A stretch of DNA of 56,042 nt from Chlamydiales bacterium (GTDB lineage: Bacteria; Chlamydiota; Chlamydiia; Chlamydiales; SM23-39), in NCBI GenBank assembly GCA_035479435.1, contig DATIIR010000058.1:1-56042 (forward strand), in the 5' to 3' direction. Below are positions 2 through 54,479 of the stretch, piece by piece (position 1 is the first letter of the stretch; every line of letters starts with the position of its first letter). The translations under genes were made by a program, and so were the position numbers. The notes below the pieces were generated by a model. The model was not told the DNA's origin, searched no databases, and saw only the letters and a program-made list of their open reading frames with translations.

Positions 2-247
2 CTCAGCGGCATTGTGACGTTTAAGAAGAGCGAGGCGTTGCGAGAAGTGGCGAAGATGGCGCCGCTGAAGCAGTTGCTGATCGAAACGGACACTCCCTAT
101 CTCGCTCCCCAGAGTCGCAGAGGCAAGCCAAACGAGCCCTCCTTCTTGCCCGAAACGGCCCACCACATAGCCCAAGCCAAAGGGATTTCGCCCGAAGAAG
201 TGGCCCGCGCGACCTTCGAAAACGCCTCCCGCCTCTTTTCCATGTAA
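2..247 (+). CDS. TatD-family hydrolase/DNase, C-terminal fragment (5' end lies outside the window)
   Basis: The frame is open to the window edge. TDTPYLAPQSRRGKPNEP and the ...FENASRLF tail are typical TatD/YcfH motifs. The last Met and the TAA stop lie inside palindrome 242-260. Confidence 0.75.
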   Translation, partial: LSGIVTFKKSEALREVAKMAPLKQLLIETDTPYLAPQSRRGKPNEPSFLPETAHHIAQAKGISPEEVARATFENASRLFSM

Positions 248-259
248 AGCCGCTTTACA
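243..259. repeat. Iterated palindrome copy a (TGTAAAGC-C-GCTTTACA)
   Basis: Read directly. Symmetry extends over 242-260. The copy overlaps the tatD-like stop codon. Confidence 0.9.
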
Positions 260-4320: not shown

Positions 4321-4893
4321 TCAACGGAGTTTTATCAACTCTGTCGCCTGTCTGTGGGGCTTCGCAATCCAAGAATCTAGGTCGAATTCTTCCATGTAAA
4401 GCCGCTTTACAATGGTCTCTTTCAGCTTCTGAATCAATGTGTTAGGACTTAAACTGTGAACTTTTAGGCGGGTTAGAAAGTCGCTGTGAGAGCGATCTTT
4501 TCTGTATTGCGGCCTCTTTTCGGGAAGGCGAAGGTGGGCCATGTTTTCTTCGGAGTAATCCCACAAAAACGAGGTGTGGTGGAGCCACCGGTCTTTCTTG
4601 ATGTACTGCGCGTTGCCTCCACATTTTTTCTCCCCGATGCAATAGTCGTTTTCTCTGAGGTGAAACTGGGGAATTTTCCAGGCGTCTCTGTAGAGATCTG
4701 CAGACCAGCGGAGGATCGGCTCGGGGAAGGGGGCGACGTCAATGTGTTCTTTAGCCATGATGAAGGTGATGAAGAGGGTGTTTTCGTCGACGATGACGGT
4801 GCCGCCGCCGCTAAAGCGCTTGATGATGGGGATCTGATCCCGTTCGACCGTGGGGAGATTGAGCAGCGCTTCTGGCTGACCAGAAATACCCAT
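4321..4893 (-). CDS. Lipoate-protein ligase (LplA/LipM) family protein. Coordinates are the minimal ATG ORF; the true N-terminus probably extends to about 5016-5031.
   Basis: FSGGGTVIVDENTLFITFI and KKCGGNAQY motifs. The same frame upstream of the ATG reads KIHLIHLNGVPIFEQLQLEEALLR, a typical N-terminus for the family, with no ATG/GTG/TTG available. Confidence 0.8.
   Translation of the reverse strand: MGISGQPEALLNLPTVERDQIPIIKRFSGGGTVIVDENTLFITFIMAKEHIDVAPFPEPILRWSADLYRDAWKIPQFHLRENDYCIGEKKCGGNAQYIKKDRWLHHTSFLWDYSEENMAHLRLPEKRPQYRKDRSHSDFLTRLKVHSLSPNTLIQKLKETIVKRLYMEEFDLDSWIAKPHRQATELIKLR
4395..4411. repeat. Iterated palindrome copy b
   Basis: TGTAAAGCCGCTTTACA lies inside the lplA-like ORF and is translated as IVKRLYM. 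Confidence 0.9.
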
Positions 4894-8440: not shown

Positions 8441-8872
8441 ATGATTACGGAAATAAGACTTAATAATGCGCCTTTAATGCAAGGCTCCGGAGGTACTGTA
8501 GTTCAGCAGCTTCAGGATGCTTTAGCCGATTACCAGAAGCTCTTTGCCCAGTGGGAACAAGATAGTCGTTCGGGGATAGACATGACGCAAATCAACGCTC
8601 AGGTGGAGGCCTCTATGACTAAAATACTCGATCTGATCAACGCGCCTGAAAATAGGATGTTTCTGGATGCGCAATTAAAAGCTAAAGGCTGGGTGCCTGG
8701 TAAATCGTATGGGCACGACATGAACCCCTTCGATTTATTTGGGGCGAGCTCGTCGTTCGCTGCAGACTTTCTCAAGCAATCTGCGGAGTGGACGCTCACC
8801 TCGTTCAACACAGATATCGCGACACTGGTGAATGACTTAAACAACCCCGCTCCCTCAGGCCATGGTCTCTGA
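8441..8872 (+). CDS. Hypothetical protein (orphan)
   Basis: Start chosen at MITEIRL with a GAAGGAAGG RBS. The TTG-started track ORF (8387) would begin inside the promoter. No recognisable domain. Confidence 0.6.
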   Translation: MITEIRLNNAPLMQGSGGTVVQQLQDALADYQKLFAQWEQDSRSGIDMTQINAQVEASMTKILDLINAPENRMFLDAQLKAKGWVPGKSYGHDMNPFDLFGASSSFAADFLKQSAEWTLTSFNTDIATLVNDLNNPAPSGHGL

Positions 8873-9878
8873 AATCAGTGCAGATAGTTCTTCCCCGTTA
8901 TCGCTCACGGATGAGGCGTTAGTCTCCGACCTGATCGGTCGGCTTTTCGGCATGCCTCTGGAAGATGCCAAAGAGTTTCTGCAAGTGCATATTCGCCGTT
9001 TCAATCCGCAGCAAATGGAAAGGATCCATACAGCGTTGTTCGCGCTTCCTCTGATCTGCAGATTTAAAGAGGAGAATCGGGGTGAGGCGGCAGCCATCTA
9101 TGCTGCGAGCAAGTACACTGAGTCACAGATTGAGTATGGAAAAAAGTGGTTTCAATCGGCCCTCCTCATTGAAAAGACCTCTTCTCTGACAGATAAATTC
9201 ATGTCCTGGGCGCTGGACCGTGAGGAGATAGCCATTCAGAGAGGAGAGGACTCCTCGGCCGATTTTACCTTGCCGAGGAACGCATCTCGTTCGGAGAAGT
9301 ACACCTCCATTGTGGGGCGATACTCTTGGATTCTCGACTCCTATCCCGAGCAAGCTTTACAAAACCTGGCATTGCTTGGCGATGGGGCCAGCGAAATCAG
9401 TTATGTTTTACAGTACCCCGATTCTTCTGGCCGGAACTTACCTCTCACCCGCTTTGTCAACGAGCCGGGCGCGACGCCCCATTGGCAGCATACATCTCGC
9501 AAGGTTTTGCGCATCTTAGAGCCTCACTTAAACGAGCTCCACGAAGAGTTGCATGCGCTTGGCAAGGAGATGGTGGCGGCGCAAGGAACGGATGCGTTCG
9601 AGTCGAAAAAGGGGCCATTTCTGGCCAAATTAGCTGAAGTCTACTGGCTGGCATCCAACTTGATGTTGACTGCGCGTGGCAGCGCCCAATACTGCCAAAA
9701 TCTCCTCTTTCATGAACTCGTGGATCACAAGCTTCCTCCCCTCGTTCCGAAAGTGGGTCTTCTTCCCGATTGCATTGCGATCACCATTCCCCTGGAAGTC
9801 TTCCAAAAGAACTTTCTCTCCTACTTTGAGTCGATGGACACATTCGCTCAAATCAGAGAACTCTGTACATCTAAATAA
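8862..9878 (+). CDS. Hypothetical protein (orphan, 338 aa)
   Basis: Long ORF that overlaps the upstream orphan by 11 nt. No signal peptide or domain that I can name. Confidence 0.65.
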   Translation: MVSEISADSSSPLSLTDEALVSDLIGRLFGMPLEDAKEFLQVHIRRFNPQQMERIHTALFALPLICRFKEENRGEAAAIYAASKYTESQIEYGKKWFQSALLIEKTSSLTDKFMSWALDREEIAIQRGEDSSADFTLPRNASRSEKYTSIVGRYSWILDSYPEQALQNLALLGDGASEISYVLQYPDSSGRNLPLTRFVNEPGATPHWQHTSRKVLRILEPHLNELHEELHALGKEMVAAQGTDAFESKKGPFLAKLAEVYWLASNLMLTARGSAQYCQNLLFHELVDHKLPPLVPKVGLLPDCIAITIPLEVFQKNFLSYFESMDTFAQIRELCTSK

Positions 9879-9884
9879 TCACTT

Positions 9885-11333
9885 CTAATCTTCGGGTGAG
9901 AAGGCGGAGAAGGCCTCTTTGTTGCCTTTGGCGACTTCGGGCTGGCCGTTGACGGGCGAGTAGTTGTTGAATTGGCCGATTTCCTTCCGGAAAGCGAGCT
10001 GGACATCGCCGACGGCACCGTGGCGGTTTTTGGCGACGATGACTTCGGCGATGCCGGGCTTGTCGTATTTGTCGTAATAATCGCGCCGGAAAATCATCAT
10101 CACCACATCGGCATCCTGTTCCAGGGATCCGCTTTCACGAAGGTCGCTCATCATGGGGCGGTGGCCTTGCCGCTCTTCCACTTTGCGGGAGAGCTGGGCG
10201 GCACAGAGAATGGGGACGTTGAGCTCGCGGGCGAGGTTTTTCAACATGCGGGAGATTTCAGAGATCTCCGTTTGCCGGTTCTCGATAGAGCGCATGTTGC
10301 CCGAGCCAGAGATAAGCTGCAGGTAGTCGATGACGATGAAGCCAACATTATAGGCCTCCTTCATGCGGCGGGCACGGGCGCGGATGTCGGTGATCTTGAG
10401 ACCCGGCTGGTCGTCGATAATGAGGGTGTCTTTTTGCATCATGTTGGCGGCGGCGACGATGCGCTGGTATTCAGAGCCGCTGAGAGAGCCGGTGAGGATT
10501 TTGTCCGATTCAACTTCCGATTGGGAACTGATAATGCGGTGGAGAATTTGGGTGGCGCTCATCTCAAGAGAAAAAATGCCGACAGGGATGTGATTGCGAA
10601 AGCAAATGTTCTCAGCGAGACAACAGGCAAGGGCGGTTTTTCCCATCGCGGGACGGGCGGCGAGGATCATGAGGTTGGATTTGTTAAAACCGTTGAGCAT
10701 CTTGTCGAGGTCGATAAAGTGGGTGGGAATGCCAGTAATGCCCGATTCGCCAGGCCCTTTCTCTTGATATTTCTGCTGCCGCTCCTGGAGCTCCTTGAGA
10801 TAGGGCATCTTCGATTCGGCTTTGAGTCCAGTGATGAGATCTTTGATCGTGACGCCAGAATTTTGCTGGTTCTCTTGCGAGATCTGGAAGAATTGCGATT
10901 GGGCTTGATCGAGAGCGGCAAGGACGTCGGCGGGCTCCTCAAGGGCCACTTTCTCTATGCCCTGAGCCGTTGAAACCATCTGGCGGAGGATCGACTTCTC
11001 CCGAACGAGCTGGATGTACTCTTCGATGAACGCAGAGGTGCCGGCGTATTGGGCGAGCGTGGTGAGGTAGCTGATGCCTCCGATGGCGTCGAGCTTGTTC
11101 ACCCGCTTGAGTTCTTCGCCGATGAGGTGGATGTCGGCGGGCTTGTCGGCGCGGTAGGCGGCCTTGAGGGTCGAGTAGATCGTCTGGTGCTCGGTGTAGT
11201 AGAAATCGAGATCGTCGAGACTGTCGGCGCCGATGTTGAGCGCGTTGACGTTCGTCAACATACAGCCAAGGACCATCATCTCCGATTCTTTGGAGTTGGG
11301 GGGAACGCGTGTCTTTCTCTCTGGTTCTGCCAT
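9885..11333 (-). CDS. dnaB: Replicative DNA helicase DnaB
   Basis: Walker A ARPAMGKT, plus IVIDYLQL and SGSLEQDADVV motifs. No intein. Confidence 0.95.
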   Translation of the reverse strand: MAEPERKTRVPPNSKESEMMVLGCMLTNVNALNIGADSLDDLDFYYTEHQTIYSTLKAAYRADKPADIHLIGEELKRVNKLDAIGGISYLTTLAQYAGTSAFIEEYIQLVREKSILRQMVSTAQGIEKVALEEPADVLAALDQAQSQFFQISQENQQNSGVTIKDLITGLKAESKMPYLKELQERQQKYQEKGPGESGITGIPTHFIDLDKMLNGFNKSNLMILAARPAMGKTALACCLAENICFRNHIPVGIFSLEMSATQILHRIISSQSEVESDKILTGSLSGSEYQRIVAAANMMQKDTLIIDDQPGLKITDIRARARRMKEAYNVGFIVIDYLQLISGSGNMRSIENRQTEISEISRMLKNLARELNVPILCAAQLSRKVEERQGHRPMMSDLRESGSLEQDADVVMMIFRRDYYDKYDKPGIAEVIVAKNRHGAVGDVQLAFRKEIGQFNNYSPVNGQPEVAKGNKEAFSAFSPED

Positions 11334-13052: not shown

Positions 13053-14792
13053 ATGAGAATCGCCCTGTTTTTGTTGGCTGTCAGCGGCCTATTTGCGCAG
13101 CAGAATATCGACTCCTATTTTGAGCGACTTTTCGATACGTTTCTAGCGCACGATCCTCAAGGGAAGAGCGCGACGGGGCTGTTTGAGCCCAACGACCAGC
13201 TCAACGACGTGAGTCCAAAGGCCCTTCTCCGCATCCACCGAGAGAAGATCGCCATGTTGGAAAAGCTGCAGCAGTATGAGCTCGATTCCCTCACGCCGGA
13301 ACAGCAGATTTCGCACCGCGTATTTTCTTGGATGCGCGACTATATGGTCGCGGATGAAAAATATCTTTTTCACGCCTATCGCGTGAATCAGATGTTTGGC
13401 ATTTTGAATGAATTGACATTTGTCTTTACGCAGTTTCACCGTTTGGAGACACAAAAAGATGTGGATCTCTACATCTCTCGCCTCGCGAAAATCCCCAAAC
13501 AACTCGAACAGACGATCGAGTTGATGAAGCATCAAAGGAAATTGGGCGTCGTACCTCCTGCATTTACGATTGAAAAAGTCATCCAGATCATTCAAAAATC
13601 GACCCCAGCCTCTATTGAGGAGAACGCCTTGTATTCCCATTTGGCGAGTAGAGACGTCGATCCGGCGCAACTGGCCAAAGCGGCCCGTGTGATGCAGACT
13701 CAAGTCTATCCCGCCTATCAAAAGTTGAGCGATTATTTAGCCGCTCTTTTGAAAGAGGGCGTGAAAAATCAGGGCGTTTGGGCATTGCCCGATGGGGACA
13801 ATTACTACGCCCACGTCCTTCGCTATCACACAACCACCGACCTCACCCCCGATGAGATCCACGCGATAGGATTTGAGCAAATCGCTCAGATCCAACAAGA
13901 GATGAGGAGTGTTTTAGCGGACCTCGGCCTCTCCGATCCCGACAAAACGGTTGGGGAGCTCGTTGCGCAGCTGGCCAAAGACCCTCAGTTTTACTTCTCC
14001 AACGACGAGGAAGGGCGGCAGGAGTGTTTGAAAAAGTACGAGGCGATATTGGCGCGGTGCCGCGAGCAGTTGTATCCTCTTTTCGATCTCAGGCCCGATG
14101 TGTCGGTTGCGATTACACCCGTGCCGGCCCACGAGCAAGAGGGGACGGCTGGCGCCTATTACCTCCCCCCCAGCCTCGACCGATCGCGGCCCGGGACCTT
14201 CTATGCCAACATGGGCAATATGAAAGAGGTCCCCATGTATACGATGGAGACGCTTACCATTCATGAAGCCGAACCGGGCCACCATTTTCAAATTGCGCTG
14301 CAAAATGAGATGAATATCCCCACTTTGCGCAAGTTGGAGAGTGGCTTTACAGCTTACGTGGAAGGGTGGGCGCTCTATGCGGAAAAGTTGGCTTATGAGC
14401 AGGGCTTCTATTCCTCTCCCTCTGCCCGGCTGGGCCATCTGCAAGCCGAATTGCTCCGAGCCGTTCGGCTTGTCGTAGACACGGGCATCCACAGCAAGAG
14501 ATGGACCCGCGAGCAGGCGATCGAGACGATGCAAAAGACGACGGGCCTCCACCTGGGCACCGTGACTCGCGAAGTGGAGCGCTACTTTGTCTACCCGGGC
14601 CAAGCCTGCTCCTACAAAATCGGGCAGCTCAAGATCCTCGAGCTGCGGAAGCGAGCCCAACTCGCCCTCGGCGACCGGTTTGACATCCGCCAGTTCCACA
14701 ACGTCGTCCTCAAGACCGCCGCAGCCCCCCTCACCGTCCTAGAAGAAAATATCGACAAATACATCATTGACGAAAAGTCCCCCTTTTTCTAG
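13053..14792 (+). CDS. DUF885-family secreted metallopeptidase-like protein
   Basis: Signal peptide MRIALFLLAVSGLFAQQ. HEAEPGHHFQ signature typical of DUF885. Confidence 0.8.
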   Translation: MRIALFLLAVSGLFAQQNIDSYFERLFDTFLAHDPQGKSATGLFEPNDQLNDVSPKALLRIHREKIAMLEKLQQYELDSLTPEQQISHRVFSWMRDYMVADEKYLFHAYRVNQMFGILNELTFVFTQFHRLETQKDVDLYISRLAKIPKQLEQTIELMKHQRKLGVVPPAFTIEKVIQIIQKSTPASIEENALYSHLASRDVDPAQLAKAARVMQTQVYPAYQKLSDYLAALLKEGVKNQGVWALPDGDNYYAHVLRYHTTTDLTPDEIHAIGFEQIAQIQQEMRSVLADLGLSDPDKTVGELVAQLAKDPQFYFSNDEEGRQECLKKYEAILARCREQLYPLFDLRPDVSVAITPVPAHEQEGTAGAYYLPPSLDRSRPGTFYANMGNMKEVPMYTMETLTIHEAEPGHHFQIALQNEMNIPTLRKLESGFTAYVEGWALYAEKLAYEQGFYSSPSARLGHLQAELLRAVRLVVDTGIHSKRWTREQAIETMQKTTGLHLGTVTREVERYFVYPGQACSYKIGQLKILELRKRAQLALGDRFDIRQFHNVVLKTAAAPLTVLEENIDKYIIDEKSPFF

Positions 14793-17085: not shown

Positions 17086-17174
17086 CGGAAAGAGAGGGAT
17101 TTGAACCCTCGATACCGTTTAACGGGTATGCGTCCTTAGCAGGGACGTGCTTTCGGCCACTCAGCCATCTTTCC
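17086..17174 (-). tRNA. tRNA-Ser (anticodon GCU)
   Basis: Hand-folded cloverleaf. Acceptor stem GGAAAGA/TCTTTCC, anticodon arm CGTCC-CTGCTAA-GGACG, long variable arm, and T-arm GAGGG-TTCAAAT-CCCTC. CCA is not encoded. Confidence 0.9.
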
Positions 17175-17252: not shown

Positions 17253-17269
17253 TGTAAAGCGGCTTTACA
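17253..17269. repeat. Iterated palindrome copy c (intergenic)
   Basis: TGTAAAGCGGCTTTACA; symmetry extends over 17252-17270. Confidence 0.9.
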
Positions 17270-17295: not shown

Positions 17296-17496
17296 TCAGT
17301 GTTGCATGGCTAGCAGCGCAGATTCGGCTTCGGCTAGGGTGGGTCTTTTTGCAGGATCTCGATCTAAAAGATTTTTGATCAATTGCACCAGCGACTTTTT
17401 CCCCCGTAAATTGCGATCTTTTAAAGGACTGTGTGGTGACCCCGGCTGTTTGCATTTCTCTTGCAAACTCCGGAGGGGATTCGTATAAGGCGGTTG
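17296..17496 (-). pseudogene. Ser/Thr protein kinase C-terminal fragment (relic)
   Basis: A frame not shown in the ORF track reads ...PPYTNPLRSLQEK...RNLRGKKSLVQLIKNLLDRDPAKRPTLAEAESALLAMQH*. This is the Hanks-kinase subdomain X-XI signature (LL..DP.KRPT). No catalytic core lies upstream, and the frame closes at 17542. Confidence 0.45.
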
Positions 17497-17499
17497 AAT

Positions 17500-17961
17500 A
17501 TGAAGTATTGGCCTCTGATCTCTTTGGTTGTTATTGCTGGGCTAGCCGCAACAGCGCTTTCATCGGGTTTTGAGATGAGGAGCTGGATGCACTACTTCAT
17601 GGGGTTTTTCCTTTGTCAATTTGCGATGCTAAAGATTTTCCATCCTGGAGGATTCGCCGACGGGTTTTCGATGTACGATCTGATTGCGTCCAGGTGGCGC
17701 TTGTATGGGTACATTTATCCGTTGATTGAACTTGGATTGGGGCTGGGTTATTTATCATTCTTTGCCCCCGTTTGGGTCTATTCGGTGACGATGATCGTCT
17801 TGGGAATCGGAGCTATCGGAGTGGTGAGATCTCTTCTTCGTGGGCTTGATCTAAGATGCGCTTGTATGGGTACTGTTTTAGATGTCCCACTTTCCACGGT
17901 TACGCTTACAGAAGATGTGGCGATGATCGCCATGGCCGCACTCCTTTTATATAATATGTAA
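17500..17961 (+). CDS. MauE/DoxX-like redox-associated membrane protein
   Basis: Four to five TM segments and a CACMG...PLSTVTLTED motif. Start chosen at MKYWPLISL. Confidence 0.7.
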   Translation: MKYWPLISLVVIAGLAATALSSGFEMRSWMHYFMGFFLCQFAMLKIFHPGGFADGFSMYDLIASRWRLYGYIYPLIELGLGLGYLSFFAPVWVYSVTMIVLGIGAIGVVRSLLRGLDLRCACMGTVLDVPLSTVTLTEDVAMIAMAALLLYNM

Positions 17962-21970: not shown

Positions 21971-22582
21971 CTATTGTTTGTGAATGTTTTGGTTCAATTG
22001 GATGACTTCCCGACGAAGCTCTTCCATCGAACCATTGTTATGAATGGTATAGCGGGCTTTGGCTGCTTTCTTTTCTGGCTTTAGCTGCCGATTCATGCGT
22101 AGATCGTATTCCGTTTTTGGGAATCCCGCTTGCTCAAAACGCTTCCTGGCTATTGCCTCATCAGCGAGCACCGCGATTGCCACATCGTAGAATTTGTCCG
22201 CTCCGATTTCGAAGAGCAGAGGGATCTCCACCACAAAGGATGAGTACCGATCTGCTCTGCACGCCGACACATAGAGCTCTTCGATCTTTTGGAGCACCGC
22301 AGGATGGAGCAACTCTTCTAATTTCTTGAGAGTGGCTGGATCCTTGAATGCCTTTTCAGCAACAATCCTACGGCTAATCTGTCCATTTTTTATGATTTCA
22401 TTGCCGAGTTGTCGGATGATTTGCTGACCAAGATCGGTGTCGGGCGTTAGAAGCTCATGGACAATCGCATCAGCATTGACCACGTAGGCTCCCAGTTCTT
22501 CAAAGAACCGACAAACGGACGTTTTTCCGCTTGCCACCCCACCTGTGATAGCAATTTTCCTTAAGCTTAACATTCGGCCCAA
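21971..22582 (-). CDS. coaE: Dephospho-CoA kinase
   Basis: [15 protein letters not shown]-loop; about 200 aa. Confidence 0.88.
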
Positions 22583-25284
22583 TTTTTGCCAACTGCGATA
22601 TGCACTTCAATCGGGACATTCAAGGTCATGACATGTTCCATTTTCTCCTTGACAATTGCCTCGAAAATAGCGATTTCGGAGTCGGGGATTTCAAAAATTA
22701 ATTCGTCGTGAATTTGCAGGATCATTTTTCCCTTTAAATTCCGTTCGCGCAAGACTCGGTCGATCTCGATCATGGCCATCTTGATCAGGTCGGCGGCGGT
22801 CCCCTGCAGCGGCGTGTTGATGGCCAGTCTCTCTGCCGCGGCGCGGATGCTCGGATTCTGGTTGTGGATCTCGGGGATGGGGCGCAATCTGCCGTTCAGG
22901 GTGGTGGTGGAGCCGCTCTTGCGCACGACGGCTTTACAATGCTCTAAGTAGCTAAGCACGCCCGGGTAGCGGGCAAAATAAGTCTTGATGAAGTCGGAGG
23001 CCTCGCGCATGGAGATCCCGAGCTGTTTAGAGAGGCCGAAGGCGCCTTGTCCATAGACAATGCCGAAGTTCACTGTTTTCGCTTGCGAGCGCATGGCCGG
23101 AGTGACTTCGGTTTCGGGGACGCCGAAGACGAGCGATGCGGTGTGAACGTGGATATCTCTGCCCGTCTTAAAGGCGCGGGTTAGCTCGGGGTCTTCGCTG
23201 AAATGGGCGAGGAGGCGCAGCTCGATTTGCGAGTAGTCGGCTCCGAGGAAACTGTGGCCCGCAGCGGGCTCGAAACAGGAGCGGATCTCCGAGTGGATCG
23301 GGATATTTTGCAGGTTGGGATCTTGGCACGAGAGCCTTCCCGTCGCGGCGACAGACTGATTGAACGTGCAGTGGATGCGCCCGGTAATGGGGTTGACGGC
23401 GTGGGGAAGGGCTTCGACGTAGGTGGAGCGGAGTTTTTCGAGCGTTCGGTATTCTAGAACGTGGCGCACAACTGGGTGTTCCTCTGCCAATTCTTCGAGG
23501 ACGTCGGCAGCAGTGGAGGTGGTTTTCGATTTGAGACCCAGTTTTTGGTAGAGCACTTCGCTCAGCTGCTTGGGCGAATTGAGATTGAACTCTTCGCCCA
23601 CCTCTTCAAAGATCGTGAATTTGGCCTTGGTGAGGTCGTGGACGAGTTTTTCTCCTTCGACTTTTAGCCTCTCTACGTCGAGATAAATGCCGGTTCGCTC
23701 CATTTCTGCCAGAATCGGCAGGAGGGGCAGCTCGATATCGTGGAGAATCGGGCCTAATTTCTTGGCGTGGAGCTCCTCTTGGAAAAGCTCTTTGAGCCTT
23801 GTCGTGTAGTCGATGTCTTCACAGCAGTATTCTTTTACTTTTTCAATCGGCACATCGCGCATCGAAATCTGGTTTTTCCCCTTGCCGATGAGGCTCTCGA
23901 TGGGGACCTTTACTTTTTTGAACTTTTCGAGAGCGAGATCGTCGAGATTGTGGCGGCGCGTTTGGGGATCGATGATATACGAGGCGAGAAGGGTGTCAAA
24001 GGCGATTTTTTTGACGGGGATGTTGAGGTTTTGCAGAATGTGGTAGTCGTATTTGAAGTTGTGCCCATAAAAACCACACGGAGCTGAGGCGAAAAAGTTT
24101 CGGAGGGCCTCGACGACTCTCTGTTTGCCGAGTTTGCCATTGAGCGGCACATACCAAGCTTCGCCCGGCTCCACGCAAAAGCTGATGCCGACCAGATGGG
24201 CGAGCATCGGGTTGATGTCGGTCGTCTCGGTGTCCACCCCCACCTCTTTTGCGCTCGCGAGTCGCTGCAAAAGTGTCCGTAAATCGGCCTCGTTATCGAC
24301 CAAATGATACTCGTGTTTATCCAAATGTAAAGCCGCTTTACATTTGCCAGGGGCCCCCAAAGACGCATCGTCTTTGGGGTTTTGTATTGCGGCTTTACAT
24401 TGCATTTTTACGGGAGAAGGGGCTGCTTTCGGTTCGCTTAACTCCCTCAAAAGGGAGTTGAATTTCATCTCTTGGAAGAAGTTGCCGAGCTTTTGTTTGT
24501 CGGACTCTTTGATGCGGTAAAATTCTACATCTTGGGGGATCTCGACGCGGGTGTGGAGTGTGGCGAGTTCGCGGCTCATCAGCGCCTCTTTCTGTTGCGT
24601 GCGGAGGATCTGCTGCTTCTTTTCCCCTTTGACCCGTTCGGGGTGGGCCAAGATGTTGTCGAGTGTGCCGAATTCCTGTAAGAGTGAGGCGGCTGTCTTG
24701 GGGCCGAAACCCTCCAGGCCGGGGATGTTGTCTGAGGCGTCGCCCATGATCGCGAGGAGGTCGAGCATCTGGTCGGGCCTCACGCCGAAGAGCTCTTTCA
24801 CTTTGGAGGCGTCGACGATGAGATTATCTTTGTGGAGCTGGAGCAGGAAAATCCGGTCGTTGACCAGCTGCATCAGGTCTTTGTCGCTCGAGCAGAGGAA
24901 GACTTTCGAGCCCTTTTTCTCAGCCCAGAGGGCCACCGATGCCATGGTGTCGTCCGCTTCAACTCCATCGACGCAGAGCGTGGAGATGCCGGCCATTTGG
25001 CAGTAGTTGTAGGCGAGATCGAATTGGGGAAAGAGGTCTTCAGGGGCTCCTTTGCGGTGCATTTTGTATTCGGCGTAGACAACTTGGCGCGACTTTTTGT
25101 TGTCGGGGCCGTCGAAAACGCAGACGAGGTGGTCAGCGGAGAAGTCGCGGATCAACTTCTGGACGGTGCGGATAAAGCCAAACAGGGCACTTGTCGACTG
25201 CCCCTTGTCGTTGAGCATGGGCCCAATAGCGTAATAGGAACGGAAAAGGTAATTGACGGCGTCTAAGATATAGATCTTATCCAC
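22567..25284 (-). CDS. polA: DNA polymerase I
   Basis: 5'-nuclease N-terminus, 3'-5' exo motif VGVDTETT, and polymerase motifs DYSQIELR and QIHDELIFE. Confidence 0.96.
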   Translation of the reverse strand: MDKIYILDAVNYLFRSYYAIGPMLNDKGQSTSALFGFIRTVQKLIRDFSADHLVCVFDGPDNKKSRQVVYAEYKMHRKGAPEDLFPQFDLAYNYCQMAGISTLCVDGVEADDTMASVALWAEKKGSKVFLCSSDKDLMQLVNDRIFLLQLHKDNLIVDASKVKELFGVRPDQMLDLLAIMGDASDNIPGLEGFGPKTAASLLQEFGTLDNILAHPERVKGEKKQQILRTQQKEALMSRELATLHTRVEIPQDVEFYRIKESDKQKLGNFFQEMKFNSLLRELSEPKAAPSPVKMQCKAAIQNPKDDASLGAPGKCKAALHLDKHEYHLVDNEADLRTLLQRLASAKEVGVDTETTDINPMLAHLVGISFCVEPGEAWYVPLNGKLGKQRVVEALRNFFASAPCGFYGHNFKYDYHILQNLNIPVKKIAFDTLLASYIIDPQTRRHNLDDLALEKFKKVKVPIESLIGKGKNQISMRDVPIEKVKEYCCEDIDYTTRLKELFQEELHAKKLGPILHDIELPLLPILAEMERTGIYLDVERLKVEGEKLVHDLTKAKFTIFEEVGEEFNLNSPKQLSEVLYQKLGLKSKTTSTAADVLEELAEEHPVVRHVLEYRTLEKLRSTYVEALPHAVNPITGRIHCTFNQSVAATGRLSCQDPNLQNIPIHSEIRSCFEPAAGHSFLGADYSQIELRLLAHFSEDPELTRAFKTGRDIHVHTASLVFGVPETEVTPAMRSQAKTVNFGIVYGQGAFGLSKQLGISMREASDFIKTYFARYPGVLSYLEHCKAVVRKSGSTTTLNGRLRPIPEIHNQNPSIRAAAERLAINTPLQGTAADLIKMAMIEIDRVLRERNLKGKMILQIHDELIFEIPDSEIAIFEAIVKEKMEHVMTLNVPIEVHIAVGKNWAEC
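24323..24402. repeat. Nested palindromic module inside the polA linker
   Basis: Contains AAATGTAAAGCCGCTTTACATTT (24323-24345), the hairpin CCCCAAAGACG-cat-CGTCTTTGGGG (24355-24379), and the degenerate copy TGTATTGCGGCTTTACA (24383-24399). Translated in frame as MQCKAAIQNPKDDASLGAPGKCKAALHL. Confidence 0.85.
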
Positions 25285-38718: not shown

Positions 38719-39879
38719 ATGAGCAACGCGACTTTAGAAAAGGCCCCAAAGAAAGTACTCTCCTCTCTGGTTCGAGAGGCGAGAGAGACCCTTCATCTCG
38801 AAAATATACCCGTCAAAGGCTACGAAAGGGTCGTCAAGGTGACGGACAAGAAGGCTGGACTCACGGGGATCATCGCCGTCCATAGCACGGTGCTGGGGCC
38901 CTCGCTCGGGGGGATCCGGATTCGGCCCTACCCCACATTCGACGCCGCCTTGGAAGACGTGTTGCGCCTCGCCAAAGGGATGACCTACAAAATGGCCGTC
39001 GCCGAAACGGGTCTTGGCGGGGGAAAGAGCGTGATCATCGCCGACCCTAAAAAGGAAAAAACCCCCGAATTGCTCATGGCGATGGGCGCCGCGATCGAAA
39101 GACTCGGAGGGAGCTACATTTGCGCTGAAGATATGGGTTGCACCATGGATGATGTGAAGATCGTTCGCCGTGCGACGAAGTATGTCGTAGGGCTCTCCCA
39201 CGCTAAGAGCAGCGGCGATCCTGGACTCTTCACAGCCTGGGGCACTTTTCGCGGGATTCAATCCATTGTAAAGCGGCTTTACATGACCGATTCCCTAGAG
39301 GGACGAAGGGTTGCAGTCCAAGGAATTGGCAATGTGGGAACCCCTCTCATCGACCACCTTTTTTGGGCTGGTGCCGAATTGATTCTCTCCGATATCGACG
39401 CGGCTAAATTGGACTACTATGCGACCAGATACAACGCGAAAAAGGTCTCTCCCGATCAGATTTTGAAAGTGGAGTGCGATGTGCTCTCTCCCTGCGCGGC
39501 GGGCGCCATCTTCAACGACCAGACGATTCCCCAATTGCGCTGCAGAGGGATCTCGGGATGTGCCAACAATCAGCTGCTCCGCGACGACCACGCGCGAGCG
39601 CTGAAAGACAGAGGCATCCTCTATGCGCCCGATTTCGTCGTCAGTGGCGGCGGAGTCATCAACGTCGCCGAGGAGCTCGAGGATGCGGGCTATAACCCCA
39701 CTACACCTCGCTACAAAGTACACCACATTTACGACACGCTTCAGGCCATCTACGAGATCGCCGACAAGAACAACGAATCGACCCATGAAGCCGCCGTCGC
39801 CTTGGCCGATTATCGACTCAAGTACGCGATTGGCAAGAGAGTTGTTCCCCCCACATTCCACCACAGCGCAGAATTCTAG
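38719..39879 (+). CDS. Glu/Leu/Phe/Val dehydrogenase family protein (leucine dehydrogenase-like)
   Basis: GPSLGGIRI, KMAVAETGLGGGK and VAVQGIGNVG motifs. Start chosen at MSNATLEK. Confidence 0.88.
   Translation: MSNATLEKAPKKVLSSLVREARETLHLENIPVKGYERVVKVTDKKAGLTGIIAVHSTVLGPSLGGIRIRPYPTFDAALEDVLRLAKGMTYKMAVAETGLGGGKSVIIADPKKEKTPELLMAMGAAIERLGGSYICAEDMGCTMDDVKIVRRATKYVVGLSHAKSSGDPGLFTAWGTFRGIQSIVKRLYMTDSLEGRRVAVQGIGNVGTPLIDHLFWAGAELILSDIDAAKLDYYATRYNAKKVSPDQILKVECDVLSPCAAGAIFNDQTIPQLRCRGISGCANNQLLRDDHARALKDRGILYAPDFVVSGGGVINVAEELEDAGYNPTTPRYKVHHIYDTLQAIYEIADKNNESTHEAAVALADYRLKYAIGKRVVPPTFHHSAEF
39267..39283. repeat. Iterated palindrome copy e
   Basis: TGTAAAGCGGCTTTACA inside the dehydrogenase ORF, translated as IVKRLYM. 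Confidence 0.9.
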
Positions 39880-47542: not shown

Positions 47543-48466
47543 TTATACGACATTGCGAGAAAATTGGACAGTTTTTCCACGCACGCTCAATTGATTCGGG
47601 AGAAGACCGTCTTGGATATGTGTAAAATAGAGACGCTTTTGTGGCATTTGCAGTGCAACCCAGCTCATCGTTTTGCGCGCATTGATCTCGACGATCGGAT
47701 GCACCCGCTTTTTTCCTTCCCACAGATAGATGAAACTGTCGATTCCCACGTAGCCTGAGTAGCCGAGCTTCGCAATCTTCTCAATCAACGGCTTTGCCAC
47801 TGCAAGATGTTCTTCCAGCGCCCATGTTTCGACACTGGCTTCAAACGTTCCTCTGTACGTGCCGTTGGGTTCATTTTCAAAAACAGTGACGCCTAAAAGG
47901 GCGCCATCCTTCCACTGCGTGCTGAAGTCTTGGAGCCTCTCCACCCACGGTTCTCCTATGAGAGGGCCAATGTAAAGCCGCTTTACATTGGGATTTAGGA
48001 CGTGGCCTCTACCTGCGGTTCCGAAGGGCGTTTTCAACACCTTTGGCCCCGGTGTCTTGGCAATCCATTGGGTGATTTCTTGGCCGGTTTCGAGCAGAGC
48101 GGCGCCGGGTAAGGGGGGCGATTCTGTGAAGGAGAAGATCTTTGAGTTCACTTTCTGGACCACATTCCATGGCGGGATAGTGTAGGGGATGTGATGGCTT
48201 TTGGCCCAGCGGGCGATCGCCTCGGAGGGGCCCCAGTGTTCGATGTGGGTGGTGCCTGGTGGGGGTTCAAGGCAGAGGCGAGGGTCTGGATCTCTGGGTA
48301 GGTCGGAGACCAAAATGGAGTCGTTGGGCCCGGCGTAGAGGAGAGGGAGAAATTGGAGCTGCATCACGACCGGATGGGAGCGGATCCACTCGGCCAACGG
48401 TTTTTTGTCTCTGGTTTCGAGCTCTTTTTCAAAAAAAGTATTGCAAATGTGGAGTGGCGACGACAT
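47543..48466 (-). CDS. ATP-grasp-like hypothetical protein
   Basis: The C-terminal half carries [13 protein letters not shown]...[10 protein letters not shown]...IVEINAR, an ATP-grasp-like Mg/ATP motif pattern. Confidence 0.65.
47967..47991. repeat. Iterated palindrome copy f (perfect 25-bp form)
   Basis: CCAATGTAAAGC-C-GCTTTACATTGG inside the ATP-grasp ORF, translated as PNVKRLYIG. Confidence 0.92.
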
Positions 48467-53731: not shown

Positions 53732-54041
53732 AAAACCTTAGCTTTCGTCCGACTATATCGAAATATCTACTTTTGACGCCAATCAAAAATTTTGAGAATA
53801 AGTATTTGATCATTAAATGTTTATAATGGGATTGCAGATATCCCAAAAATAGTTCGCTGAAATCGATGATTTCGTTTGATTTATAGTCGTTAATATGAAA
53901 TAATCATTACTTAAAGAACGAAAACTAAAATAAATACGAAATAACCGTATGATATTAAAAATGTAATTTATAGCCATACGGTAAGTAGTTAAAGATTAGC
54001 AATTAAATAGAATATGAATGAATTTTGAGGAGGAAGGAACC

Positions 54042-54479
54042 ATGGATTCAGACACAGCATGGAGCCAGACCCAGGGACAAAGTAATTCAGCGAAGGTGGT
54101 TTCGATCACTGAAGCCGCTCGAATTAACAATGTAACTCGGCAGGCCATCTATGTTGCTATCAAACAAAAGAAATTGAAAGCAACAAAAGACTCGACTCGT
54201 TGGACAATCCACCTGGACGATCTTGAAGAGTATCGAAATAACAAGTACTCGCGTACGAAATCGATGTACGACGGGGAACTTTTATTCGACAACAAAAAAG
54301 GTTACTATTCAGTTAATCAAGCCGCAAAAGTTTTGGGTGTACCCGCTCAAAAGATTTACTACGCGACACGCGTAGGTCTTTTAAAAGCGCATCGTAAAGG
54401 TGCTGCGTGGGTTATTCACACCGATGACATTAAAGGCTACCAAGAAAATTATCTGAATCGCAGACCCAAAGTTGGCTAG
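54042..54479 (+). CDS. euo: Tandem excisionase-type HTH DNA-binding protein, candidate Euo-like developmental regulator
   Basis: Two repeats of the pattern (V/Y)S(I/V)xxAAxxxxVxxQxIYxAxxxxxLKAxxxxxxWxIHxDD(L/I). Strong GAGGAGG RBS. The position next to tsp and gltX matches the chlamydial gltX-euo neighbourhood as I recall it. Confidence 0.6.
   Translation: MDSDTAWSQTQGQSNSAKVVSITEAARINNVTRQAIYVAIKQKKLKATKDSTRWTIHLDDLEEYRNNKYSRTKSMYDGELLFDNKKGYYSVNQAAKVLGVPAQKIYYATRVGLLKAHRKGAAWVIHTDDIKGYQENYLNRRPKVG

Follow-up and report, generated by a model that had tools for sequence, protein, structure and literature searches.

What kind of element is a 17-nt palindrome that recurs, letter for letter, along a single chlamydial contig, and what keeps it intact? 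The question is raised by a 56,042-bp stretch of DNA from the metagenome-assembled genome of an uncultured Chlamydiales bacterium (contig DATIIR010000058.1; the whole stretch is called the window here), in which an earlier note, made from the letters alone, had singled out the repeated palindrome TGTAAAGC-S-GCTTTACA (= TGTAAAGCSGCTTTACA, S being C or G), hereafter the word. A search with the pattern TGTAAAGCSGCTTTACA returned the six exact copies and, with mismatches allowed, the one degenerate copy that the note had listed, at the same coordinates (Table 1), and no exact match was found in 100 dinucleotide-preserving shuffles of the window, in agreement with the note's claim that the motif is beyond chance. 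Allowing up to three mismatches adds only two sites in the window, at 24383 and at 14335, and the latter, with three mismatches, is within the range of chance. Two copies extend to 25-bp palindromes with arms that are 100% complementary, one being the form already noted at 47967-47991 (CCAATGTAAAGCCGCTTTACATTGG) and the other lying at 24322-24346. In every set of loci this 17-mer is the sole over-represented palindrome with 8-nt arms, with no other palindrome and no 'dialect' beside it.

The analyses described here show that the word is real, born by substitution, maintained at the DNA level, strict, clade-specific and common to one phage family. As to its function, the reading that we favor on sequence evidence, with a probability of roughly 0.45, is that of a double-stranded DNA word read by a protein, for which roles similar to those of parS or Noc-binding sites (NBS), of a Chi-like 'self' mark and of an uptake-type signal were considered. 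That the sequence belongs to no described family, as had been supposed, agrees with the searchable literature and with Rfam: no published description of the sequence or the phenomenon was found among 8 million full texts, searches for chlamydial palindromic repeats, uptake sequences and tailed phages returned nothing relevant, and an Rfam scan at gathering and permissive thresholds gave tRNA as the sole match. Genomic words of this kind are known as such; what is new is a clade-specific iterated word of unusual length and strictness with an unexpected link to phages.

Maintenance at the DNA level is evident in the gene for leucine dehydrogenase (LeuDH). For five other species, whose selection rested solely on their proteins (66-78% identical to that of the window; GC content 42-52%), and for the window, i.e. 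for all six species, the DNA of the site reads T GTA AAG CGG CTT TAC A while flanking codons differ synonymously. The motif codons are invariant in 5/5 cases compared with 5.7% of the 193 other columns in which the amino acid is invariant and degenerate (six species; P = 6e-7), and the motif is the longest run of invariant codons in the gene. In the 307-aa open reading frame (ORF) the site is exact in L043, L301 and L302, and direct alignment gives an 18-nt block that is invariant in four species, flanked by variable sequence with one indel. The polA orthologs that encode C-K-A-A-L all have TGT AAA GCS GCT TTA (6-8 species), and single decays are present in three lineages (TGTAAAACC in L116 and L124, TTTATA in L179). 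Given that the motif codons are invariant amid drifting synonymous sites, these sites must be old, positionally stable and actively kept perfect, and this conservation at orthologous positions also supports the proposal that the motif is selected or propagated rather than a product of chance. In line with this strictness, copies are nearly all-or-none and one-mismatch forms are rare: counted by mismatches (0/1/2/3), sites number 6/0/1/1 for the window, 10/1/0/2 for close relatives and 8/3/2/3 for loci chosen by PolA similarity (see below).

Because the word is palindromic, it has the same reading on both strands. It can be read (i) as TGT AAA GCS GCT TTA, encoding C-K-A-A-L, (ii) as xxT GTA AAG CSG CTT TAC, encoding V-K-R/P-L-Y, and (iii) in the remaining frame, which holds a TAA stop codon; all three readings are in use. 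The C-K-A-A-L-H frame is used in polA and the V-K-R-L-Y frame in the genes for LeuDH, LipB and the 307-aa ORF, and the TAA of the word is the stop codon of a tatD-like gene in the window, of the phosphoglycerate kinase (PGK) gene of a relative and of about 16 phage genes. An ortholog of the 307-aa ORF in L048 has the word at the same place in the C-K-A-A-L frame. The same DNA thus serves in two coding frames, as a stop codon and between genes, which rules out a peptide motif and identifies the conserved entity as a nucleic acid. The observation that copies lie both inside genes (polA, LeuDH, lipB, the 307-aa ORF) and outside or at the end of them (intergenic at 17253, tatD-like stop), and mostly in ORFs of housekeeping enzymes (polA, LeuDH, lipB), is correct. 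The word points to selection on the DNA that overrides codon choice within the essential enzymes PolA, LeuDH and LipB.

How the word arises can be read from orthologs that lack it. In polA, the alignment of ...KCKAALHLDKH... with ...KKKTAQIDKH... and ...KKKARHIDKH... indicates that the word replaces ancestral KKK[AT][AR][HQ]I with the length unchanged. In LeuDH, ...QSVVKRLYMTDS... aligns gap-free with ...QAAAKKLFGTDS... or ...SVIKKLYGTDS..., so that VVKRLY faces ancestral AAKKLF or VIKKLY, and in lipB, ...ETIVKRLYMEE... aligns gap-free with motif-less ...HTLEKHFTLKV... and ...ETLAIDYDLEE..., IVKRLY being aligned to LEKHFT, LAIDYD and similar peptides. The proto-sites match the word at 7-10 of 17 bases already, and in none of the three genes is the solo word an insertion relative to motif-less orthologs. 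New copies thus arise in place, by base substitution or by short same-length patch replacement, at codons compatible with C-K-A-A-L or V-K-R/P-L-Y and also at the ends of genes, to which the third frame supplies TAA.

The same alignments bear on the possibility that solo copies originate as a selfish miniature mobile element of the repetitive extragenic palindrome (REP)/REPIN, MITE (a miniature transposable element with inverted repeats) or Rickettsia palindromic element (RPE) type, with a transposase acting in trans and spread by phages. The perfect, all-or-none state of the copies is what such an element would leave behind, and so are their sporadic presence at differing phage junctions, where some motif-less orthologous junctions measure only 9-12 nt, and the gain by a relative of CCAATGTAAAGCCGCTTTACATTGG, identical to window 47967-47991, at the 3' end of its PGK gene, a palindrome that four orthologous regions lack. 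A composite module described below, with constant internal sequence in different genes and species, a tandem arrangement in L052 and a REPIN-like long hairpin, points the same way. Same-length codon replacement in polA, LeuDH and lipB, with no target-site duplication, however, excludes a transposon or RPE-type insertion as the origin of the solo word. Moreover, the copies are old, positionally conserved and undecayed, unlike neutral selfish copies, 47% of them are intragenic, unlike REPs, and in eight multi-copy loci no gene resembling a REP-associated tyrosine transposase (RAYT; Y1 transposase), nor any other driver gene, is flanked by copies. We therefore consider a mobile origin of the solo copies very unlikely, and of the likeness to RPEs that had been suggested only that of the composite module stands (in polA, and in lipB of a relative). 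Chance and an assembly artefact were rejected as well: the shuffles, the orthologous copies and a scrambled control palindrome all speak against them, and the word is found at orthologous sites in independent JGI, Logan and NCBI assemblies, which removes the concern that it could be a chimera confined to this contig.

To which organisms does the word belong? In a 596-Gb collection with one genome per GTDB species, it was found in at least 114 stretches. Among the 80 matches listed, about 38 assemblies are represented that are named Chlamydiota or uncultured, the chlamydial status of the unnamed ones being presumed; the named ones include Simkaniaceae, Parachlamydiales, Waddliaceae and Ca. Amphrikana. 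Six matches among those listed are singletons from other phyla, which fits chance as a few hundred chance sites are estimated across the collection. A single genome can hold the word on many contigs. Among 62 loci (669 kb) chosen solely by PolA similarity, just four have exact copies, with PolA proteins 68-78% identical to that of the window, and no exact copy was found in the low-GC lineages of this set. Closer relatives have 2-3 copies per 21 kb, and the density in the sequences sampled comes to about one site per 7-19 kb. Thus, the word is clade-specific and its density lineage-specific. Solitary half-sites (GCTTTACA) follow the word, being enriched 4-8-fold where it is present and not enriched in chlamydial lineages without it; the window has seven (including the one at 24392 inside the variant copy) compared with 0.9 expected, and set against six full palindromes this means that the majority of half-sites sit in palindromes.

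A placement census of 133 non-redundant host copies places 63 (47%) deep within long ORFs, 44 in the V-K-x-L-Y and 19 in the C-K-A-A-L frame, whereas 10 lie within the final 25 codons of an ORF, 15 at an ORF 5' end and 45 outside long ORFs. Chlamydial genomes are typically about 90% coding and, with this coding density assumed, the 53% of copies that are not deep in long ORFs indicate that gene boundaries are over-represented. The extended palindrome differs between lineages: JALEGI01 (Simkaniaceae CC_bin22) has nearly always AGCT-TGTAAAGCSGCTTTACA-AGCT (e.g. L001, L021, L024, L037, L070 and L078), and relatives of the window favor the flanks CAAA/CCAA...TTTG/TTGG. Flanks covary per copy in hosts, with 1.73 vs 0.88 nt of extra pairing, and do so in hosts only, not in phages; this may reflect nothing but the lineage-specific extended consensus. 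L087:18-2998 has a perfect tandem repeat of about 1,490 nt with three palindrome copies; a 279-aa ORF lies in the repeat, together with the C-terminus of a secretion-ATPase-like gene (...NVKRLYKGTGC...), and either a segmental triplication or a repeat made in assembly may account for it.

Origin, density and placement together are also what could be expected of an uptake or transfer signal similar to the uptake signal sequences (USS) and DNA uptake sequences (DUS). Fragments with the word would be preferentially taken up or recombined, perhaps in a ComEC-dependent manner, and point mutations that improve proto-sites would spread by molecular drive, the sites persisting regardless of their effect on fitness. 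Birth by substitution in coding DNA, in the two open frames only and at less-constrained protein positions, is consistent with this, as are conservation at orthologous sites across species, the enrichment at boundaries and between genes and the lineage-specific density, and drive has the advantage of giving per-site upkeep without per-site fitness effects. Known uptake sequences are non-palindromic 9-12-mers that occur about once per kb and have many one-off variants; the word, in contrast, is a strict 17-bp dyad with about one copy per 10 kb and very few one-offs. Palindromy, moreover, has no advantage in the uptake of duplex DNA, and drive gives a poor account of phages of 37-40 kb, apparently lytic, in which copies are perfect and conserved in position. 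Lateral transfer that depends on a ComEC homolog is documented for C. trachomatis (PMC6686042) and speaks for this alternative. On balance, we regard an uptake or transfer signal as unlikely.

The phages just mentioned form one family. In IMG/VR, at least 120 stretches contain the word with an S centre and at least 120 with a W centre (A or T), and a scrambled control palindrome of the same composition gave two viral matches. Together these are at least 240 stretches, and about 94% of the matches listed (113/120 and 112/117) fall in a single protein-sharing family, whose contigs of about 37-40 kb with a GC content of about 35-45% encode a portal of the P22 type together with a major head protein and a terminase. 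The portal has more than 4,800 homologs in the protein collection, and cultured relatives of the family are distant (at most 28% identity). The motif-bearing loci of the family lie among L181-L300 and L310 onwards (e.g. L214, L256 and L322). Phage copies are sporadic, with about 8 per 2 Mb per centre class (a density unbiased by selection) or about 0.3 per genome, and most of them lie in minimal intergenic gaps in the order stop codon, word, ribosome-binding site (RBS), ATG. They are positionally conserved where the flanks are 67-79% identical, and some orthologous junctions without the word are merely 9-12 nt long. With the extended palindrome as BLAST query, PLSDB plasmids and INPHARED phages gave only spurious 19-nt matches.

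The phage copies also define what is strict about the word. One-off forms at the inner position 6/12 occur in 19 viral stretches, which is about chance, and those at the outer position 1/17 in 96, which is an enrichment, so strictness is confined to the core GTAAAGC-N-GCTTTAC, on either side of which T and A are usual. Any base is tolerated in the centre, given that phages have both S and W centres in abundance, and there is no sense-strand bias at this position (23 G vs 19 C). Some phages have extra half-sites or 11-nt iterons (ggaatttacat, 3x) after the word, as at L220:5420-5470 and L256:2451-2485, and around position 5900 of L289 two imperfect variants 14 nt apart replace it; this arrangement suggests clusters of putative binding sites upstream of structural genes.

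Which hosts do these phages infect? To our knowledge, the only phages described for Chlamydiota are Microviridae. A protein encoded at L235:881-1261 of one phage locus is 33% identical, over both domains, to the Euo-like tandem winged helix-turn-helix (wHTH) protein of the window, and Euo, the chlamydial master regulator, has a tandem wHTH architecture (PMC4989314). The shared word and the Euo-like phage protein make a chlamydial host likely, and we suggest that the family probably infects these chlamydiae and acquired the word from them. Proteins common to phages and chlamydial loci are only the Euo-like protein, a Doc/Fic toxin and a DnaB-type helicase, and no prophage copies of the family were found in the chlamydial loci of this analysis.

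The phage context invites a further alternative, in which the word acts in RNA (or single-stranded DNA) as a hairpin with a 7-11-bp stem and a CNG loop that would be read by an RNA-binding protein or RNase, or that would stabilize or terminate transcripts; a palindrome would work in either orientation. Copies in short gaps of structural operons between stop codon and RBS are consistent with this, and where the word follows the major capsid gene in L214, unrelated GC-rich stem-loops occupy the junction in other family members. Host copies often abut stop codons, and the predicted folds of the 25-mer (-11.5 kcal/mol) and of the composite module (-44 kcal/mol) are well beyond those of shuffled sequences. 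The 19-mer hairpin is weak (-4.7 kcal/mol), however, and it is the sequence and not mere pairing that is conserved, with no compensatory variants or lineage dialects found. A variant copy that recurs in the composite module (TT to AA in one arm) disrupts pairing within that copy, and nearly half of the host copies are deep in essential genes, a place in which a hairpin for processing or termination would do harm. Thus, an RNA hairpin is a distinctly improbable explanation of the word as a whole.

A different history applies to the composite module. At 24326-24399 in polA, a perfect copy, a second palindrome and a variant copy make up an in-frame unit of 57 nt that PolA orthologs of 889 aa lack. 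Its layout, TGTAAAGCSGCAATACA - ACCCCAAARAYG nnn CRTYTTYGGGGGCCCC - spacer - TGTAAAGCSGCTTTACA, recurs in eight other loci (L034, L052 twice in tandem, L060, L074, L083, L108 and L167) with a period of 57-61 nt, or 71 nt in one locus, and L060 has it as an in-frame insertion of 60 nt within lipB. The unit is predicted to fold as a single long hairpin (z = -7.4). On this basis, the composite is a separate, insertional and hairpin-forming derivative that uses the word as its ends and behaves in an RPE- or REPIN-like manner; the chance that it is mobile is about even. The second palindromic module, CCCCAAAGACG-nnn-CGTCTTTGGGG, codes for x-P-x-D-(D/N)-A-S-L-G (window 24355-24379; PolA homologs P0008 and P0011) and is found again in the linker of PolA in relatives, where the 17-mer can be missing and the module repeated in tandem; such in-frame hairpin repeats may form a family of their own.

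Combining these data, we return to the protein-read word. Two 8-bp half-sites around one free base, together with the lack of strand bias, suggest that the duplex would be recognized by a dyad-symmetric, probably dimeric, putative protein that belongs to one clade of environmental Chlamydiota. Upkeep would be by purifying selection at each site for a chromosome-organizing or 'self'-marking role of the parS, NBS or Chi type or, alternatively, by a conversion-type, USS-like drive, and phages that infect these chlamydiae would acquire the word of their host. The more specific version, in which the word is a dedicated 'self' or transfer mark of one environmental Chlamydiota lineage that is read by a dimeric protein and copied by phages, is tentative and we consider it rather doubtful, and a small probability goes to explanations other than those listed here.

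Several points weigh against a protein-read word. Sites for operators and nucleoid proteins are typically degenerate and not letter-perfect. Selection on each site is hard to square with roughly one maintained site per 7-19 kb in small intracellular populations, and an architectural host protein alone leaves the sporadic phage copies unexplained. Finally, the phage junction at which relatives have unrelated GC-rich hairpins would fit a role in RNA or as a terminator. Two specific candidates were also considered. Euo is unlikely to be the reader, as the motif published for it is A/T-rich (TTAAAAACAAATTTT), even though an Euo-like tandem wHTH protein is encoded in the window. The TTTACA hexamers of the word were examined as promoter elements and rejected on the misfit of their geometry in the phage context, with a weak fit at 17253.

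The word would join DUS/USS and HIP1 as the third well-documented kind of 'watermark' that is spread over whole genomes, here in a phylum in which genetics is very difficult. Its length and strictness should make the reader easy to retrieve by DNA pull-down or phylogenetic profiling, and that reader could reveal a new mechanism of chromosome marking, DNA exchange or anti-phage defense in obligate intracellular bacteria. The word may also serve as a practical in-silico tag by which an abundant family of uncultured tailed phages is tied to Chlamydiota and chlamydial contigs are recognized in metagenomic data, and if it is a 'self' or transfer mark that phages copy, it would assign this very large family of 37-40 kb phages to chlamydial hosts.

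The copies and half-sites of the window are listed in Table 1. The tatD-like gene ends with the codon ATG (242-244), and its stop codon is the TAA at 245-247 within the palindrome (...S-M-stop); the frame-2 product is 74% identical to its ortholog in L084. The copy at 17253 is about 80 nt away from the tRNA gene, the polA copies at 24326 and 24383 lie in the linker that joins the 5'-3' exonuclease and 3'-5' exonuclease domains, and the 307-aa ORF is conserved and adjoins an EPSP-synthase gene.

Table 1. Copies of the word, the second palindrome and solitary half-sites in the window
Feature	Position	Location	Reading or remark
Exact copy, centre C	243..259	overlaps 3' end of tatD-like gene, + frame 2	TAA of the word is the stop codon
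Exact copy	4395..4411	in lipB (4321-4893, minus strand)	V-K-R-L-Y, about 27 codons ahead of stop
Solitary half-site GCTTTACA	14344..14351	+ strand	further starts at 9354, 22931 and 38030
Exact copy, centre G	17253..17269	intergenic	tRNA gene 17086-17174 (minus) to MauE-like ORF 17461-17961 (plus)
Exact copy	24326..24342	in polA (22567-25284, minus strand)	C-K-A-A-L-H
Second palindrome CCCCAAAGACG-cat-CGTCTTTGGGG	24355..24379	apical hairpin of composite	codes ...PKDDASLG... in PolA
Variant copy TGTATTGCGGCTTTACA, 2 mismatches	24383..24399	polA	C-K-A-A-I-Q
Solitary half-site TGTAAAGC	starts 27535 and 55308		
Exact copy	39267..39283	in leucine dehydrogenase gene (38719-39879, plus strand)	V-K-R-L-Y
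25-bp perfect palindrome	47967..47991, core 47971-47987	unannotated 307-aa ORF 47543-48466, minus	V-K-R-L-Y

Other genes of the window, among them those for a TLC ATP/ADP translocase, a DUF2709 protein, the Euo-like protein and an autotransporter, fit a chlamydial source, and its PolA homologs carry the names Parachlamydiales, Chlamydiales or Chlamydiia. The Euo-like protein, encoded at 54018-54479 (+), has 153 aa and two excisionase-type HTH_17 domains, and its ortholog in L106 is 84% identical. A 338-aa ORF at 8862-9878 (+) is weakly similar to the AvrB_AvrC avirulence-protein family (E = 3e-7) and is possibly a type III effector-like protein. The DnaB helicase of the window (9885-11333; 482 aa) has no intein, unlike the 914-aa DnaB replicative helicase of a close relative (L179:18443-21187), which contains an intein with a LAGLIDADG domain.

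Comparison with known systems places the word between several of them. Mobile palindromes are the more distant ones. RPEs resemble the composite only, which likewise is an in-frame insertion that adds a peptide segment, in the polA linker and in the C-terminal region of lipB; RPEs are 100-150 bp long and always insertions, whereas the 17-mer is substitutional and has no sequence relation to them. REPs, bacterial interspersed mosaic elements (BIMEs) and REPIN-RAYT systems share with it palindromic units, mosaic or tandem composites and doublets that form long hairpins. REPs, however, lie outside genes, are imperfect palindromes headed by GTAG or CGTC and have species-specific sequences, whereas the word is perfect, has half of its copies inside genes (63/133 deep in long ORFs) and is identical across deep lineages. 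Chi is likewise an all-or-none 'self' word of its host that is over-represented in core genes and occasionally acquired by phages. It is a 5-8-nt asymmetric sequence, read on single-stranded DNA and oriented with replication, unlike a 17-bp palindrome, which can have no orientation and thus no Chi-type orientation bias.

ParB and Noc sites (parS, TGTTNCACGTGAAACA; NBS) are, like the word, near-perfect dyads of about 16 bp that are tolerated in genes and positionally conserved; they are read by a dimer and are also present on plasmids and phages. They differ in being few and clustered near the origin, whereas the word has another sequence and far more copies, is on many contigs per genome and does not appear to be confined to one chromosomal region; no site within two mismatches of canonical parS was found in the window. 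DUS of Neisseriaceae and USS of Pasteurellaceae likewise arise by substitution in tolerant frames, are enriched at gene ends, are conserved among relatives and have mostly perfect forms, but they are asymmetric, about ten times denser and richer in one-off variants. The likeness in behavior to HIP1 (GCGATCGC) of cyanobacteria, to which the earlier note had drawn attention, is borne out: both are short, perfect, clade-specific and over-represented palindromes that occur in all permissible frames and between genes and are conserved at orthologous sites beyond codon constraint. HIP1 is an 8-bp word with about one copy per kb, and the word of these Chlamydiota is more than twice as long, about tenfold sparser and has a free central base. 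Thus, the word fails defining features of HIP1, of USS/DUS and of parS/NBS alike; its behavior is closest to that of HIP1 and USS/DUS, and its form is closest to that of the parS/NBS dyads.

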